Positions 2-34,985 are shown, numbered from the stretch's first letter. The stretch is DNA of 64,000 bases from Candidatus Poribacteria bacterium (GCA_963666305.1 OY762722.1:5092812-5156811); one strand, 5' to 3'. Translations and numbers: made by a program. Notes: generated from the letters alone by a model not told the origin.

Positions 2-778
2 GTAATTCAAATCAGTTGTATCCTTCTCTGCACTGTCACCTTAATTATTGGTGTGAAAGCTCAAGTCGTCACGGACGGCTTAGTGAGTTATTACACGCTT
101 GACAAAAACGACATCGTCGGCGATACCGTTAAAGATCTCGTTGGCGGCAAAGATGGAACAATCGTCGGTGAGCCGGAGTCCATCGAAGGTCATCTCGGAG
201 ACGCACTCAATTTTGGCGGAAAACCGGATTGTGTGGAGTTGCCGATCATTTTCAATATCGGGGAGAAACCAGCGTCGTATGAAGCGTGGTTTTTGAAACC
301 CTCTAACAGTCGCATCGGTTGGCAATATATCCTGACAAACAAAACGAATTTCTTCGATCATTTCTTTCGGTTGGGTTTTAATCAGGATACCGGACAACTC
401 CGATACTATACTGAGCAAGCCAACAACATCAAAAAAGCGTGGATAACCGATGAGGACTACGCCGATGGCAAATGGCACCATGTGGTGGCAACACGCGAAG
501 AGGATAAGGCACAGGTGTATGTCGATAGCGTCCTCGTCAAAGAGGAGGAGGCAATGTCCGGCAATTTAGGCGGCGGTGAGACGAACTGGAACATCGCTCA
601 AGATGGGAATACCGATGGGTACTTGATAGGCGCGGTGGACGAAGTGCGCATCTATCAGAAAGTACTAACACCGGAAGAAATCAAGCAGAACTTTGAGTCA
701 CAGGGTTTAGCTGTCCAGCCCATCGGGAAGTTGAGTCTCACTTGGGGGCGGATTAAAACCGCGCAATCTGATCATTAA
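2..778 (+). CDS. LamG-like jellyroll secreted protein with C-terminal VxPxGKLxxTWGxIK motif (5'-partial)
   Basis: Frame is open to the window edge (VIQISCILLCTVTLIIGVKAQ, signal-peptide-like); LamG motifs WHHVVATR and GAVDEVRIY; tail AVQPIGKLSLTWGRIK. Confidence 0.85.
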   Translation, partial: VIQISCILLCTVTLIIGVKAQVVTDGLVSYYTLDKNDIVGDTVKDLVGGKDGTIVGEPESIEGHLGDALNFGGKPDCVELPIIFNIGEKPASYEAWFLKPSNSRIGWQYILTNKTNFFDHFFRLGFNQDTGQLRYYTEQANNIKKAWITDEDYADGKWHHVVATREEDKAQVYVDSVLVKEEEAMSGNLGGGETNWNIAQDGNTDGYLIGAVDEVRIYQKVLTPEEIKQNFESQGLAVQPIGKLSLTWGRIKTAQSDH

Positions 779-913
779 TGATTGTCAAATTCAGACAACA
801 TAAGTGGTTCATGTTCATTTCTTGACAGAAGTCCAGGGTAAAATAGAAACCTTCCAAAGGACTAAACATTCGGGTGGTTTTACTAAACTCTATTTTTAGA
901 ACGGGAACTGACA

Positions 914-2134
914 ATGAAGGTAGATCGACAGCAACTCATTGATGACGGCTATATCGTGCTGCGACAGGTTGTTCCACCGGATCAACTGGAAACGTTGAGA
1001 ACGAGTTTTGAAACCCTCGTTGAGAAGCAAAAAGAAGTCTGGGCACGCGAACGGAAACCGGAAGAGAAACCCGGAGGCGTTTGGACAACGAGTGCACAGC
1101 CGAGAGTGTTTTTCGATGAAGTCATTGACGCAGAGACCGCGGATACCGTGGAATTTTGTCTGCATGAGAACACCCTCGGTGTGAGTCAACAACTCATGAG
1201 AGCACCCGACGCGGCGATCACACTGATGGCACTGATGTGTAATCCTGTGCAAGATCACGGTCCGGCGAGTTGGCATCGTGATATTGACCCAACGGGACAG
1301 GCACCGCTGAAGGGGATGCAGATGGATTATGTTAAAAACGGACCAGGCTACGTTCAGTGGAACATCCCGCTTTACGACGACAGCGTGTTCTGGCTTGTGC
1401 CGAGAAGCTACTGCCGCCCAAATACTCCAGAAGAATATCAACACCTATTATCACGCCCACAGGAACCAATGCCAGGTGGGATTCCAATCGAACTGTCAGC
1501 AGGAGATGGGGTCGTCTATAGCCACATGGGCTTGCACTGGGGCAGCAATTATAGCACAAAATTGCGACGGACGGTTCACCTCGGATATCGCGCTTTCGGG
1601 GGAGATTCGTACCCGATCGTTGACAACTTTTATTGGAATCTGGGATTTACACAGCACCTTCCGACTGAGGCTCGCTCCCAATTTGAACATTTCTTCCAAC
1701 TTCAGCAGCAGCAGAGCGATCTGATTGAATCAACCTTCCATGCCATCCGCAACAAAGATGCTGATGCTTGTCGAAATGGATTGGCAAAGCTGCACCCGGG
1801 TGAAGAAGAACGTATGGTCGCGGTTGTATTCCTCTCAAAATTAGCCGATAAAGTCCGTAAACTCAAAGACCCTGAAGTCAGTAAACTTTCGATTGAAGAA
1901 CGCATCGGTGCAATCTCTGCGCACCGACTCAATTTCCATCTCTATGAGGATTTCGCGGATCGTTTTTCCGCCGAAGATGCCGAAAGTATCTGGAAACGGT
2001 TTTCGACGCTATACGAGAAAATCGAGGCAGAAATTGCCCGATCTGTCCCGGATAGAGCATCTCGTGTAATGCGCTATCAACTGACGGATATGCCAGTGAA
2101 TTTCGAGGTAGAGAACTTTATTCGGAGTTGGTAG
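914..2134 (+). CDS. Phytanoyl-CoA dioxygenase (PhyH) family Fe(II)/2OG enzyme with C-terminal extension
   Basis: DGYIVLRQVV start, WHRD (HxD), GDGVVYSHMGLHWG distal His, conserved Arg. Confidence 0.8.
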   Translation: MKVDRQQLIDDGYIVLRQVVPPDQLETLRTSFETLVEKQKEVWARERKPEEKPGGVWTTSAQPRVFFDEVIDAETADTVEFCLHENTLGVSQQLMRAPDAAITLMALMCNPVQDHGPASWHRDIDPTGQAPLKGMQMDYVKNGPGYVQWNIPLYDDSVFWLVPRSYCRPNTPEEYQHLLSRPQEPMPGGIPIELSAGDGVVYSHMGLHWGSNYSTKLRRTVHLGYRAFGGDSYPIVDNFYWNLGFTQHLPTEARSQFEHFFQLQQQQSDLIESTFHAIRNKDADACRNGLAKLHPGEEERMVAVVFLSKLADKVRKLKDPEVSKLSIEERIGAISAHRLNFHLYEDFADRFSAEDAESIWKRFSTLYEKIEAEIARSVPDRASRVMRYQLTDMPVNFEVENFIRSW

Positions 2135-2252
2135 AAATGTATAACAACTTCCAAACGAATTGCGTCAATCAGATGTGTCTGTCGTGCAAGAGATGTGCGA
2201 TTTGCGCTGGTAGGTTGAACAATTTCACTGTGAAGCGAACAGGAGTTAATCA

Positions 2253-32748: not shown

Positions 32749-32801
32749 ATTTCCGTTAGTTGAACAGAAACGATAATCAAAATATGGAGGTAATTTAAAA
32801 A

Positions 32802-33494
32802 ATGAAAAGCAGATTTATGCTTTTGGCAGTGTGTGCTATCGGAGTTCTTCTTATGGCACAATTTGCTACTGCCTTAGACAAAATTGAAGGTCCTTGGTAT
32901 TGGATGATCACCGAGAGTCCCGCTGGCGGTGGTGGTGCCCTTGTAACAGATGAAGACGGTATCGACGAGGCAACAAAGGGTAAACTAACCGAGGAAGATG
33001 TCGCAGAACAGGGCATTACAAAGGATATTCTGAAGGTCAAATTTGCCGAAAATTACGAATGGACCGAGGGAGAAATCGCCGCAGCCGGGGGGAACAACAT
33101 CAATGATATGCTCATAAAGATTAAGTTGGGCCCCGGGGGCGATGTCAATGACCACTGCTCCTACGCCGTGATCAACGCTGTATCAAAAACTACGAAGAAG
33201 GGTGCTGAAGCCCGTGTCGGCAGCGATGATTCCGTCAAGGTCTGGATGAACGGTGAGGAGGTTCACAAAAACCCTGTCAACCGCGGTGCTGGTGATTTTC
33301 AGGACACTTTCGAGGTAGATATCAAGAAAGGCGATAACGTTTTCATGGTTAAAGTCTGTGAACGCGGCGGTGGTTGGAGCATGTTCGCCGGGATCGACGC
33401 GCCTTTGGAATATAACCTGGAGTTTAAGGGACTTCCCGTTGAACCCGCTGGCAAATTAGCAACACAGTGGGCAGAAGTCAAAAGTTCTTACTAA
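32802..33494 (+). CDS. Secreted beta-sandwich protein with C-terminal VEPAGKLATQWAEVK
   Basis: Signal peptide; GSDDSVKVWMNG...VKVCERGGGW domain. Confidence 0.8.
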   Translation: MKSRFMLLAVCAIGVLLMAQFATALDKIEGPWYWMITESPAGGGGALVTDEDGIDEATKGKLTEEDVAEQGITKDILKVKFAENYEWTEGEIAAAGGNNINDMLIKIKLGPGGDVNDHCSYAVINAVSKTTKKGAEARVGSDDSVKVWMNGEEVHKNPVNRGAGDFQDTFEVDIKKGDNVFMVKVCERGGGWSMFAGIDAPLEYNLEFKGLPVEPAGKLATQWAEVKSSY

Positions 33495-33758
33495 GTTGAT
33501 ATTTTAGCCGGTATTACTGTTTCCGGAACTCACAATTCGGAACCGTTTTTATCGGCTAAAATCGCACAAAGTTTTTTGTGCTTGATTTAATTGTGGTATA
33601 TTTGTTAAACTAATCTAAATATGTTGTCCTATCTTTGTAAGTATCGGTACAATATTGTAGCCGCGATTTCTGATTGAGGTGCAGCCGAGCCCGCAAGAAC
33701 AGGCAACACTGATTTCACTGTGTTTCGTTTAAAAGTAAAAAATTAATTGGAGGATTTC

Positions 33759-34985
33759 ATGTATAGAAAATTGTTCACAATAGGGTTCGCATGTCTCATA
33801 GCACTTTTCGTTATGGCACAAACTGCCGATGCCCAAGATAAAATTACGGGTCCGTGGCTCTGGATGATTGCGCCAACCGCGGCAAACGAAGGTGGGGCGA
33901 ATTCGACCGATATCGATTCACTTGCTGAAGCCAGTGGTGGTGATGTCACTGAGGACGATGTCGCAGCAAACGGTGCCAGCGAAGGCGACGCAGTCGGTGA
34001 CCTGGTATGGACGCTCGGTGAGATCGCCGATACCGGTGGTAACAATGTCAACGATCTCGTCAATGAGATTGGCTTGGGTGAAGGCGATGTCAACGACCAC
34101 TCGTCTTATGCACTCATCACGCTTGAATCCGACTCTGATCAGAGCGGTGTCGATATGAAAGTCGGCAGTGATGACTCTGTCAAGGTCTGGCTCAACGGTG
34201 AAGTGGTTCACACAAACGCTGTCAACCGCGGTGCCGGTGATTTTCAGGACACATTTCAGGTTGACCTGCAAACAGGCAATAATCTCTTACTCGTGAAGGT
34301 CAGTGAACGTGGTGGTGGTTGGAGCATGTTCGCCGGTGTTGATGCCGACGTGAATGCTGTCTATAAAGCCCCCGGTGCTGTAGATGGAAAAATTACGGGG
34401 CCCTGGCTCTGGGTGATTGCCCCGACTGCAGCAAACGAAGGCGGCGCAAATTCGACCGATATCGATTCGCTTTCTGAAGCCAGTAGCGGTACTGTCACTG
34501 AGGACGATGTCGCAGCAAACGGTGCAAACGAAGGCGACGCAGTCGGTGACTTGGCATGGACGGTCGGTGAGATCGCCGATACAGGCGGCAACAACGTCAA
34601 CGATCTCGTCAATGAGTTAGGCTTGGGTGAAGGTGATGTCAACGACCATTCCGTTTATGGACTGGTCCTCCTTGAGGCTGATGAAGCTCAGGATGGCGTT
34701 CCGGCGAAAGTCGGTAGTGATGACTCCGTCAAAGTCTGGTTCAACGGTGAAGTGGTTCACACAAACGCTGTCAACCGCGGTGCTGGCGACTTCCAAGATG
34801 ATTTCACAGTTGACTTGAGAGCAGGTACTAATGTCCTGTTGGTGAAGGTCAGTGAACGTGGCGGCGGCTGGAGCCTGTTCGCCGGTGTCGGTGGCACGTG
34901 GACTCTCCGTCCTGGTAACAATTTCGTTTCCGTCGAACCTACGGGGAAACTCTTCACAACTTGGGGAAGCCTGAAAACCAAGTAA
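33759..34985 (+). CDS. Secreted acidic protein with two tandem copies of the same domain and C-terminal VEPTGKLFTTWGSLK
   Basis: KITGPWLW...GSDDSVKVW..ERGGGWS duplicated; paralog of 32802. Confidence 0.85.
   Translation: MYRKLFTIGFACLIALFVMAQTADAQDKITGPWLWMIAPTAANEGGANSTDIDSLAEASGGDVTEDDVAANGASEGDAVGDLVWTLGEIADTGGNNVNDLVNEIGLGEGDVNDHSSYALITLESDSDQSGVDMKVGSDDSVKVWLNGEVVHTNAVNRGAGDFQDTFQVDLQTGNNLLLVKVSERGGGWSMFAGVDADVNAVYKAPGAVDGKITGPWLWVIAPTAANEGGANSTDIDSLSEASSGTVTEDDVAANGANEGDAVGDLAWTVGEIADTGGNNVNDLVNELGLGEGDVNDHSVYGLVLLEADEAQDGVPAKVGSDDSVKVWFNGEVVHTNAVNRGAGDFQDDFTVDLRAGTNVLLVKVSERGGGWSLFAGVGGTWTLRPGNNFVSVEPTGKLFTTWGSLKTK

Follow-up and report, generated by a model that had tools for sequence, protein, structure and literature searches.

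A C-terminal tail common to many exported proteins of Poribacteria as a candidate for a new address or docking label in the cell envelope

Many exported proteins of Poribacteria end in the same short peptide, and this tail has the appearance of a label, not described before, by which proteins are addressed to the cell envelope or docked there. In the reading which we favour, with a probability of roughly 0.6, we regard the tail as a modular linear motif peculiar to the phylum and infer for it a partner, a role and a destination, viz. it would be read by this partner for sorting of the protein within the envelope or for its retention at the surface. The window (viz. the whole stretch of 64,000 nucleotides of DNA that was analysed) is part of a 5.6-Mb Candidatus Poribacteria chromosome, which is 94.9% complete. 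The sequence-only reading of the window had claimed that six proteins in it have the tail in common, and all six ORFs were confirmed at the coordinates given in Table 1, as was the claim that a protein with a duplicated core carries only one tail (ORF 33747-34985). However, the phenomenon is much larger than first noted, with about 213 cases per genome and a distribution which is phylum-wide.

Table 1. Genes of the window whose products end in the tail
Product	Coordinates	Strand	Tail and residues after it	Remarks
LamG (Laminin_G_3) protein	2..778	+	VQPIGKLSLTWGRIK plus 6 residues	5' end cut by window edge, complete in genome
247-aa signal-peptide protein without Pfam family	11644..12387	-	VEATSKLTTLWARLK plus 4	singleton cluster
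260-aa LamG protein	15651..16433	+	VEPSGKLATTWANLK plus 2	folded by AlphaFold2, tail disordered
260-aa LamG paralogue	16570..17352	+	VEPADKLATTWGSIK plus 3	78% identical to product of 15651..16433
230-aa signal-peptide protein	32802..33494	+	VEPAGKLATQWAEVK plus 3	6-member family without Pfam match
412-aa protein, ATG at 33759	33747..34985	+	VEPTGKLFTTWGSLK plus 2, once	same core domain twice

The tail is about 18 residues long and has the consensus [LF]-[AP]-V-[ED]-[PA]-x-[GD]-K-L-[AT]-T-T-W-[GA]-x-[LIV]-K, after which 1-8 polar or basic residues follow. A six-frame search of the whole genome with a regular expression gave 155 matches, of which 153 end 1-18 residues before the stop, while the remaining two look like chance. 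When an HMM of the tail (23 positions) was run on 29,500 six-frame ORFs with a threshold of at least 14.5 bits, 178 ORFs passed (the strict set) and in all 178 of them the motif lies 1-18 residues from the stop, with 3 as the most common number of intervening residues. The Trp is invariant in this set (178/178), and the last Lys (177/178) and the Val (171/178) are nearly so. Under a looser rule, by which the variant LPVSPQPQLLTTTWGEVK of the PD40 proteins is also included, this one genome contains about 213 tail ORFs among roughly 4,550 gene-like ORFs, or about 5% of the proteome. The strict C-terminal position, which had earlier been singled out for checking, thus holds in the HMM scan of the genome, and among the database proteins matching the regular expression the motif is C-terminal in 216 of 224. 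Two database matches of internal or repeated appearance, viz. P0155 (a TPR NTPase) and P0236 (a protein with a 'VAVDPxGxATVVW' repeat), were rejected as unrelated proteins.

The suggestion that the tail is lineage-specific is borne out by its distribution. It is present in all 61 of the sampled Poribacteria genomes, which represent 14 genera and 8 families; among the matches listed when 185,579 species were scanned there are 80 loci, 74 of which are titled Poribacteria; and two control genomes (one Nitrospiraceae and one Synechococcus) gave zero tail matches. Altogether, the motif matches 769 cluster representatives out of 1.84 billion. Further, it does not correspond to any curated sorting domain: when 46 tails were compared with the curated NCBIfam and Pfam models, no family was matched by more than one tail and the best E-value was 0.021, and in the full-length window proteins no curated model overlaps the tail. 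A search of PDB sequences with the tail profile gave four matches, all with E-values of at least 0.13 and none of them meaningful. Those tail carriers which have a name are called 'hypothetical protein', literature searches with the motif strings returned unrelated words alone, and nothing relevant was found in the literature on Poribacteria together with LamG/laminin G or C-terminal sorting signals.

The proteins which bear the tail are varied in their folds, and nearly all of them have the signs of export. They fall into 40 BLAST clusters, whose representatives in 20 of 40 cases lack a Pfam match, and the tag is domain-independent, as had been proposed, since it occurs on at least 10 Pfam families (viz. 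LamG, PD40, Kelch, CBM4_9, CBM9, F5/8-C, NPCBM, HmuY, ankyrin and Big_12+LTD), including all-alpha ankyrin repeats and beta-propellers. Their median size is 269 aa. The proposed tie to signal peptides is likewise upheld by calls made with in-house heuristics (hydrophobicity for the signal peptide) rather than with SignalP or a trained predictor: a signal-peptide-like stretch is present within the first 50 residues in 168 of the 178 strict tail ORFs versus 1,143 of 3,598 other ORFs of at least 200 aa, and with a limit of 70 residues in 208 of the 213 tail ORFs. By heuristics of the same kind, lipobox-like signal peptides are rarer in the tail set (4/208 vs 172/1,489; Fisher p = 1.3e-6). Proteins which have only the tail could be periplasmic rather than located across the outer membrane.

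If the tail were an integral element of the core fold, or if it merely resulted from a terminator or a repeated DNA element located at the 3' ends of genes, then it would not be a peptide signal. Before testing, an extra strand was conceivable, because the Pfam LamG model stops about 15 residues ahead of the motif. However, in the AlphaFold2 model of the LamG protein encoded at 15651..16433 the fold closes near residue 235, and the tail (residues 242-260) has a pLDDT below 50 and is unpacked, with a hint of a short helix at residues 253-258; the tail is thus not a LamG strand. In the second model, where the motif and a spacer precede a CTD, they are also disordered (pLDDT 30-45), and the tail is carried by ankyrin, propeller, CBM and Ig-like cores as well. 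At the DNA level every synonymous codon is in use in the tail, with a third-position identity of 0.40, and the DNA downstream of the tail genes is unrelated (identity 0.257, which is the random level). As the synonymous codons vary freely in this way, selection acts on the peptide. The varied cores, the disorder and the codon usage together refute an origin as a structural element or DNA by-product, to which we assign a negligible probability.

The same genome encodes a separate class of large proteins which end in a CTD of the T9SS type (type A; PF18962, TIGR04183). Like the tail, this CTD is a fold-independent C-terminal label on Sec-exported Gram-negative proteins, and in one orthologue group the two are adjoining elements. 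However, the CTD folds into a beta-sandwich, with a length of about 75-90 residues (pLDDT 84-92 in an AlphaFold2 model), whereas the tail is disordered and only about 18 residues long, and the CTD is carried by large repeat proteins and enzymes (median 844 aa) whereas the tail is carried by small binding modules. No ORF of this genome ends in both. The identity of the tail with the CTD was rejected, as 0 of 46 tails match PF18962 at E-values up to 10 (among the six window proteins there are likewise 0 matches), and the possibility that it derives from the last CTD strand by truncation was rejected because the tail HMM misses CTD ends even at an E-value of 10. The genes resembling T9SS components comprise one SprA-like ORF (58 bits), seven PorV-like ORFs (best 97.8) and three PorU-like ORFs (best 287), which are below the curated cut-offs of 200, 250 and 420, respectively; PorV1 clears the Pfam threshold for PorV (29.4 vs 27 bits). 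In the parts of the literature on Poribacteria and type IX secretion that were accessible, there is nothing on a poribacterial T9SS.

The two elements adjoin in the FG-GAP/ASPIC orthologue group, where in 30 of 30 orthologues the motif is followed by a spacer with a constant length of 6 residues and then by a T9SS-type CTD, this fusion being known from one orthologue group in two genera. In the canonical T9SS, the CTD is removed at its boundary. If the same occurs here, then the fused motif would be left 2-6 residues from the new C-terminus, similar to the free tails. Assuming canonical processing of the CTD, despite the scores of the T9SS-like genes below their cut-offs, this arrangement suggests that the motif has a role after transport across the outer membrane. 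The closeness of the motif to a free C-terminus is also what C-terminal proteases read, and cleavage could take place at the conserved V-[ED]-P which precedes the core, so that the tail might alternatively be a pro-peptide or turnover signal, which a periplasmic tail-specific or C-terminal processing protease removes and which affects maturation or lifetime and not location. However, no reason is apparent why about 213 unrelated binding modules should have one degradation or maturation signal in common, and the motif is kept ahead of the CTD, where it is not C-terminal at synthesis; this alternative is regarded as quite improbable.

Another explanation is that the tail is a dockerin-like docking tag, which binds non-covalently to a scaffold, e.g. 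a large CTD-anchored repeat protein, so that big surface proteins would carry the small lectin-like modules. This is a specific version of the favoured explanation, in which the partner is a structural scaffold and not a transport or processing machine. The difference in size between the small, single-module tail proteins and the large CTD proteins is in keeping with it; the repeat domains of the CTD class, with Dockerin_1 modules in 5 of the 10 members scanned, make a modular assembly plausible; and a disordered linear peptide is of the kind that binds folded receptors. However, a receptor domain was not identified, the genes for tail proteins and CTD proteins are not co-localised, and the motif remains unpacked on the adjacent CTD in the AlphaFold2 model, by which packing on the CTD in cis was rejected. 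A scaffold is considered an unlikely identity for the partner.

A search for a partner near the tail genes gave no candidate. Among the neighbours of the 213 tail genes, clear enrichment was seen for no gene family; the highest-ranking 'family' is a 381-member single-linkage cluster with nothing specific, and of the 164 runs of tail genes 128 are single genes. The expectation that the machinery lies outside the window is in agreement with the positions of the SprA-, PorV- and PorU-like ORFs, the secretin and the CTD proteins, all of which are beyond the window range; within the window, the domain scan covered ten ORFs at 914-24687. Twelve neighbourhoods of +/-4 genes, centred on the secretin and on the SprA-, PorV- and PorU-like loci, contain 6 tail genes where about 4.5 are expected, which is no enrichment. 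The presence of a tail gene upstream of the SprA-like one is conserved in only 2 of 30 loci, a comparison in which the matches in other genera start at query residues 36-120 and slightly less upstream DNA is covered. Complex prediction for residues 22-370 of the best PorV-like protein (with an alignment of 26) and a 40-residue tail alignment gave 0.00 in two runs without controls, and it counts neither way.

That the surroundings of the cargo genes yielded no gene for machinery would be in accordance with an anchor which needs none, viz. a basic, Trp-containing tail that binds directly to a membrane leaflet or to lipopolysaccharide without a dedicated partner gene. The mean net charge of +2.3 over the last 16 residues, the invariant Trp and the hint of a short helix at residues 253-258 are also favourable to it, as is the depletion of lipoboxes, which would follow if the tail took the place of a lipid anchor. 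However, the tail had been described as amphipathic and this was not borne out: compared with background 10-mers, its helical moment (100 degrees) of 0.295 is at the 65th percentile and its strand moment of 0.396 at the 80th, and its mean hydrophobicity is 0.03. Further, the conservation is residue-specific (V-E-P, T-T-W-G) and extends to positions at least 5 residues upstream of the putative helix, which is needless for generic membrane binders, and Thr-Thr and Gly are poor helix formers. Particular residues are conserved on both faces of the segment (W 100%, K 99%, V 96%) without strong amphipathicity, which is fitted better by a specific partner than by general membrane affinity, and direct membrane binding is considered improbable. 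E. coli PBP5 and PBP6 have C-terminal amphipathic membrane anchors, the C-terminal helix of PBP5 binding to the inner membrane; these are similar to the tail in being short C-terminal segments without a transmembrane helix on periplasm-exposed proteins. However, the tail is ordinary in its moment and hydrophobicity and its conservation is residue-specific over about 213 paralogues, and an in-plane anchor of the PBP5 type was rejected.

Several other systems also resemble the tail in part. The tripartite sortase-type signals (LPXTG/sortase, PEP-CTERM/exosortase, GlyGly-CTERM/rhombosortase) have a similar layout to the V-[ED]-P, short segment and basic extreme C-terminus of the tail, and like it they occur on many unrelated exported proteins of one lineage; however, the tail lacks a transmembrane helix. 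PEP-CTERM was rejected because no hydrophobic span follows the V-[ED]-P in the tails, where 8 residues separate the two conserved lysines, and LPXTG because the tail has neither this motif nor a TM segment. The four TM-like segments found lie at residues 50-54 and are displaced signal peptides. Exosortase (EpsH, PF09721) and sortase each gave 0 matches in this 94.9% complete genome. The beta-signal of outer-membrane proteins, which has a terminal aromatic residue and occurs on beta-barrel proteins, is likewise a C-terminal recognition element for an envelope machine. However, the ends of the tails vary, with an aromatic last residue in 42 of the 178 (Y 22, F 16, W 4) and mostly R, Q or K, and the cores are soluble folds (LamG, CBM, propeller, ankyrin), by which this identity was rejected. 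Lastly, the cargo-loading peptides of encapsulins and the encapsulation peptides of microcompartments are very short and C-terminal, and they join unrelated cargo by a flexible linker to a protein receptor. The tail is similarly a short C-terminal peptide on a flexible linker, common to unrelated proteins, whereas their cargo is cytoplasmic and 208 of 213 tail ORFs have a signal-peptide-like N-terminus.

In the favoured reading, the motif terminates a disordered linker, its carriers are Sec-exported binding proteins which are mostly small and have a single domain, and selection at the peptide level keeps it throughout the phylum. After export across the inner membrane, a putative envelope partner (a receptor, shuttle or processing enzyme) would read the motif near the free C-terminus, and it would sort or retain the protein, for which the outer membrane or the cell surface is the most plausible destination, so that the symbiont may acquire a coat of lectin-like modules. 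A bolder version, which is put forward tentatively and whose chances we place below even, is that Poribacteria have a sorting and display system of their own, in which the motif would direct to the surface, in each genome, about 200 small modules of lectin-like, propeller and ankyrin type, either by a specialised branch of a highly divergent T9SS-like apparatus (with the three PorU-like and seven PorV-like paralogues) or by a new machine. If this is true, then a glycan- and protein-binding coat would be the interface of a dominant uncultivated symbiont with its sponge host.

Poribacteria are an uncultivated phylum of sponge symbionts, dominant in many sponge microbiomes, and their 'eukaryote-like' and carbohydrate-binding proteins are thought to mediate the symbiosis. 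With the tail as a simple criterion in the sequence, the proteins which probably make up the envelope or surface proteome of this phylum can be picked out, and tail versus CTD sorts these proteins into two cargo classes. Envelope machines such as sortases, exosortases, rhombosortases and the T9SS have repeatedly been discovered by way of common C-terminal tags, and the tail peptide is a defined bait for its putative partner. The tail HMM could also serve immediately as an annotation aid and as a near-diagnostic marker of poribacterial contigs in metagenome bins. As regards expression, contigs from RNA libraries of three studies cover two of the genes of the window; such contigs do not reveal start, end, strand or level, their uncovered stretches carry no meaning, and this is weak support for the expression of these two genes.

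The C-terminal tail is a real and very strong feature of the entire genome. Translation of the six window ORFs, for which the sequence-only reading had described a shared C-terminal peptide, gave the C-termini that it had ascribed to them. The window is located at 5,092,812-5,156,811 within one contig of 5,622,920 bp (47.5% G+C), and when this genome was searched in six frames with a regular expression there were 155 matches, 153 of which lie 1-18 residues ahead of a stop codon in ORFs that are open for ~200-400 codons, the remaining 2 resembling chance matches. A tail HMM of 23 positions, run against all 29,500 six-frame ORFs of at least 50 aa with a threshold of at least 14.5 bits, identified 178 ORFs, and in all 178 of them the motif is found 1-18 residues from the end (mode 3), in agreement with the strictly C-terminal position that had been proposed. 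Anchored on its invariant Trp, the conserved block reads [LF]-[AP]-V-[ED]-[PA]-x-[GD]-K-L-[AT]-T-T-W-[GA]-x-[LIV]-K, with only two freely varying inner positions, and it is followed by a short end rich in R/Q/S/K. Among the 178 tails, W is present in 178, the last K in 177, V in 171, K(-5) in 166 and L(-4) in 159. There is also a variant tail, longer by one residue, on ~30 PD40-propeller proteins. Under a looser rule 213 tail ORFs are recognized, and a homology check indicates that some degenerate tails escape even this rule. The possibility that the tail originates from a repeated DNA element is excluded by its free codon usage and by the unrelated DNA downstream: all synonymous codons are in use at the conserved residues (for Val, GTT 88, GTC 40, GTG 22 and GTA 21), third-position identity where the residues are identical is 0.397, the 60 bases past the stop show 25.7% identity between tail genes, and all three kinds of stop codons are present. 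Judged from these sequence features, selection acts on the peptide rather than on the DNA.

The carriers of the tail are exported proteins of many kinds. Based on hydrophobic-window heuristics, which were used in place of a trained predictor for both signal-peptide and lipobox calls, a signal-peptide-like stretch is present in the first 50 residues of 168 of the 178 tail ORFs vs 1,143 of 3,598 other long ORFs, and at a limit of 70 residues the suggested co-occurrence with signal peptides is seen in 208/213 tail ORFs. Four "transmembrane-like" segments deeper in tail ORFs begin at residues 50-54 and are signal peptides whose position was shifted because the ORFs were called too long. Lipobox-like signal peptides are rarer on tail ORFs (4/208 vs 172/1,489; p = 1.3e-6). 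After removal of the tails, the cores form 40 BLAST clusters (90 LamG, 20, 6, 6, and so on), 23 of which are singletons. Pfam was run on the six window proteins, two proteins with the PD40 variant and, for every cluster other than LamG, a single representative; it placed on the tail carriers Laminin_G_3, PD40 and Kelch propellers, CBM_4_9, CBM9_1, F5/8 type C, NPCBM, HmuY, ankyrin repeats and Big_12+LTD, and 20 of the 40 representatives scanned had no Pfam match. The claim that the tag occurs on unrelated folds, independently of them, is upheld by this range of families. The alternative that the tail is an integral strand of the LamG fold was examined with an AlphaFold2 model of the window protein encoded by 15651-16430 (38 sequences; mean pLDDT 83.3), in which the LamG fold is closed by about residue 235 and residues 242-260 have pLDDT <50; therefore the tail is no strand of this fold and the alternative is removed. 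In the no-Pfam family of window gene 32802-33494, a Nitrospiraceae homologue has the core domain within a 533-aa protein without the tail.

The tail is outside every known signal family, although it would be of the same general kind as C-terminal protein-sorting signals. When 46 isolated tails were searched, no Pfam or NCBIfam model matched more than one of them and the best E-value was 0.021, so that the absence of a match to a characterised sorting domain stands. Nothing similar to the tail was found in the PDB, exosortase and sortase were not found in the source genome (94.9% complete), and the motif strings were not found in the literature searched. The portions of Kamke et al. 2014 (PMC3909097) drawn upon here report poribacterial proteins with TIGR04183-type CTDs, describe Por structural genes as not found among the single-cell genomes, and do not mention the short tail. 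Tables S8 and S9 in the supplement of that paper enumerate eukaryote-like poribacterial proteins that have signal peptides, among which there may already be carriers of the tail. The description of the tail as amphipathic does not hold: its ten core residues have ordinary helical (0.295, 65th percentile) and strand (0.396, 80th percentile) moments, the mean hydrophobicity of the core is ~0, and the last 16 residues together carry a net charge of about +2.3. Because the moments are ordinary, the hydrophobicity is ~0 and the conservation is residue-specific, these properties favour recognition by a specific reader over simple affinity for membranes.

T9SS-type CTDs (PF18962/TIGR04183) are also present in this genome, with 31 PF18962 matches and at least 56 ORFs with CTD-like ends. 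The proteins that bear them are large (median 844 aa) and comprise WD40, LDL-receptor class B, cadherin, LRR, sulfatase and Ig-repeat giants. Carriers of the short tail are smaller, at a median of 269 aa; moreover, no ORF ends in both the tail and the CTD, and the CTD model finds no match among the tails. By these sequence comparisons the short tail is a class separate from the CTD. A Dockerin_1 module was detected in 5 of the 10 CTD proteins scanned (examples in the table), and many CTD ORFs have a conserved ~45-residue stretch ('...FQRGILILEQLL...') immediately ahead of the CTD. The machinery candidates comprise a SprA-like ORF, seven PorV-like ORFs (the best of them in 41/41 genomes and passing Pfam PorV) and three PorU-like giants, one of which has a PorV-like gene directly after it. 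The scores of the SprA-, PorV- and PorU-like ORFs are all below curated cut-offs, and a divergent T9SS-like gene set seems to exist in this complete poribacterial chromosome. The second PorV-like gene is adjoined by a Type ISP restriction-modification enzyme (1,032 aa; 3678905-3682003, minus strand).

Coordinates, in the source genome (G000), of the motif-CTD fusion protein, CTD-protein examples and T9SS-like machinery candidates
Feature	Position	Observation
FG-GAP/UnbV_ASPIC protein	917,238-919,073	motif, 6-residue spacer, then CTD
CTD-protein example	3640519-3642204	Dockerin_1 observation
CTD-protein example	1785872-1787401	Dockerin_1 observation
CTD-protein example	1081733-1083835	Dockerin_1 observation
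CTD-protein example	1103119-1105266	Dockerin_1 observation
CTD-protein example	4456374-4458539	Dockerin_1 observation
SprA-like ORF	536351-543079	2,242 aa, single copy, in 41/41 genomes
PorV-like ORF	3337388-3338512	one of seven
PorU-like giant	577500-583799	
PorU-like giant	4803869-4810420	
PorU-like giant	4081629-4086782	

The motif and the CTD occur in one polypeptide in the FG-GAP/UnbV_ASPIC protein, where the same order, with the motif intact, is retained in all 30 orthologues (two or more genera) while the residues upstream drift; its ~18 paralogues in the source genome lack both motif and CTD. In an AlphaFold2 model of this protein the motif and spacer have pLDDT of 30-45 beside a confident CTD (84-92), and thus the motif is predicted to be a linear one within a linker. 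In a canonical T9SS the CTD is removed at its boundary, and such cleavage would leave the motif 2-6 residues from the new C-terminus, like the free tails. By analogy, this geometry gives a hint that the tag may have its role after outer-membrane transport.

In its distribution the tail is a phylum-specific C-terminal tag, which is undescribed as far as our searches reached. Orthologues of two window proteins are in records titled Candidatus or uncultured Poribacteria at 74/76 and 31/32 loci, which places the source organism in this phylum of sponge symbionts, and the proposed lineage specificity is borne out by tail-profile matches in 61/61 Poribacteria genomes (14 genera, 8 families) vs whole-genome counts of 0 in a Nitrospiraceae and 0 in a Synechococcus genome. 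At least 123 matches were scored in most Poribacteria genomes, the lowest number being 16, in a genome of 3.8 Mb. The back-translated core motif, scanned across one genome for each of 185,579 species, matched at least 118 stretches, and among the 80 matches listed 74 come from records titled Poribacteria, 4 from "uncultured bacterium", one from a Pseudomonadota sponge bin and one from Synechococcus. The Synechococcus match is rejected as a tail, being a chance internal match within a 63-aa ORF; the other matches listed without a Poribacteria title are true tails on signal-peptide proteins, and two MAGs titled "uncultured bacterium" have 126 and 67 tails in their whole genomes. The Pseudomonadota record (L209) is from a 1.9-Mb sponge MAG (G061) whose 6 true tail matches are spread over three or more contigs, which are probably mis-binned poribacterial contigs, and the tail could act as a check for bin contamination. 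In a collection of 5.8 billion proteins, at least 897 had E <=0.01 among 8,000 scored candidates, all the named ones being "hypothetical protein" of Poribacteria, and 769 had E <=0.001 in a representative library of 1.84 billion. A true tail is present on 263 of 265 database proteins retrieved, and in the 224 caught by the regular expression the motif is followed by <=8 residues in 216, 9-20 in 4 and >20 in 4. In one retrieved protein, the unrelated P0236 (474 aa), repeats of the form VAVDPxGxATVVW match the tail profile weakly; the tail, over its first two thirds, is similar to the strand-turn-strand unit from which such repeats are built, a hint that the tail might form a beta-hairpin when bound.

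The best-supported reading, to which we assign a probability of about 0.6, is that the tag serves as a label for sorting, retention or docking that a dedicated partner reads. Analysis of neighbours, proximity to T9SS-like loci and synteny of the SprA-like gene identified no such partner. The tail genes of the window are located among genes for carbohydrate use (two GH32, a sulfatase, GH95, UxuA and GFO/IDH/MocA oxidoreductases), which would fit tail proteins serving as glycan-binding accessories. The tandem LamG tail genes (window 15651-16433 and 16570-17352) are paralogues that are 78% identical. In RNA libraries from three studies there are contigs that cover this pair, consistent with its transcription, and in two runs they join 15706 to 16626 with 919 bases skipped; so some strains carry one fused LamG copy and the copy number differs among strains. 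An ORF for an AAA_15/AAA_21 (AbiEii-like) ATPase, possibly a defence-system component, is present among the sugar-use genes (window 5996-7183, minus strand), and a 404-aa ORF (window 7930-9141, minus strand) matches the VHL beta-domain (PF01847, E = 2.7e-9), a eukaryote-type domain that is unusual in bacteria.
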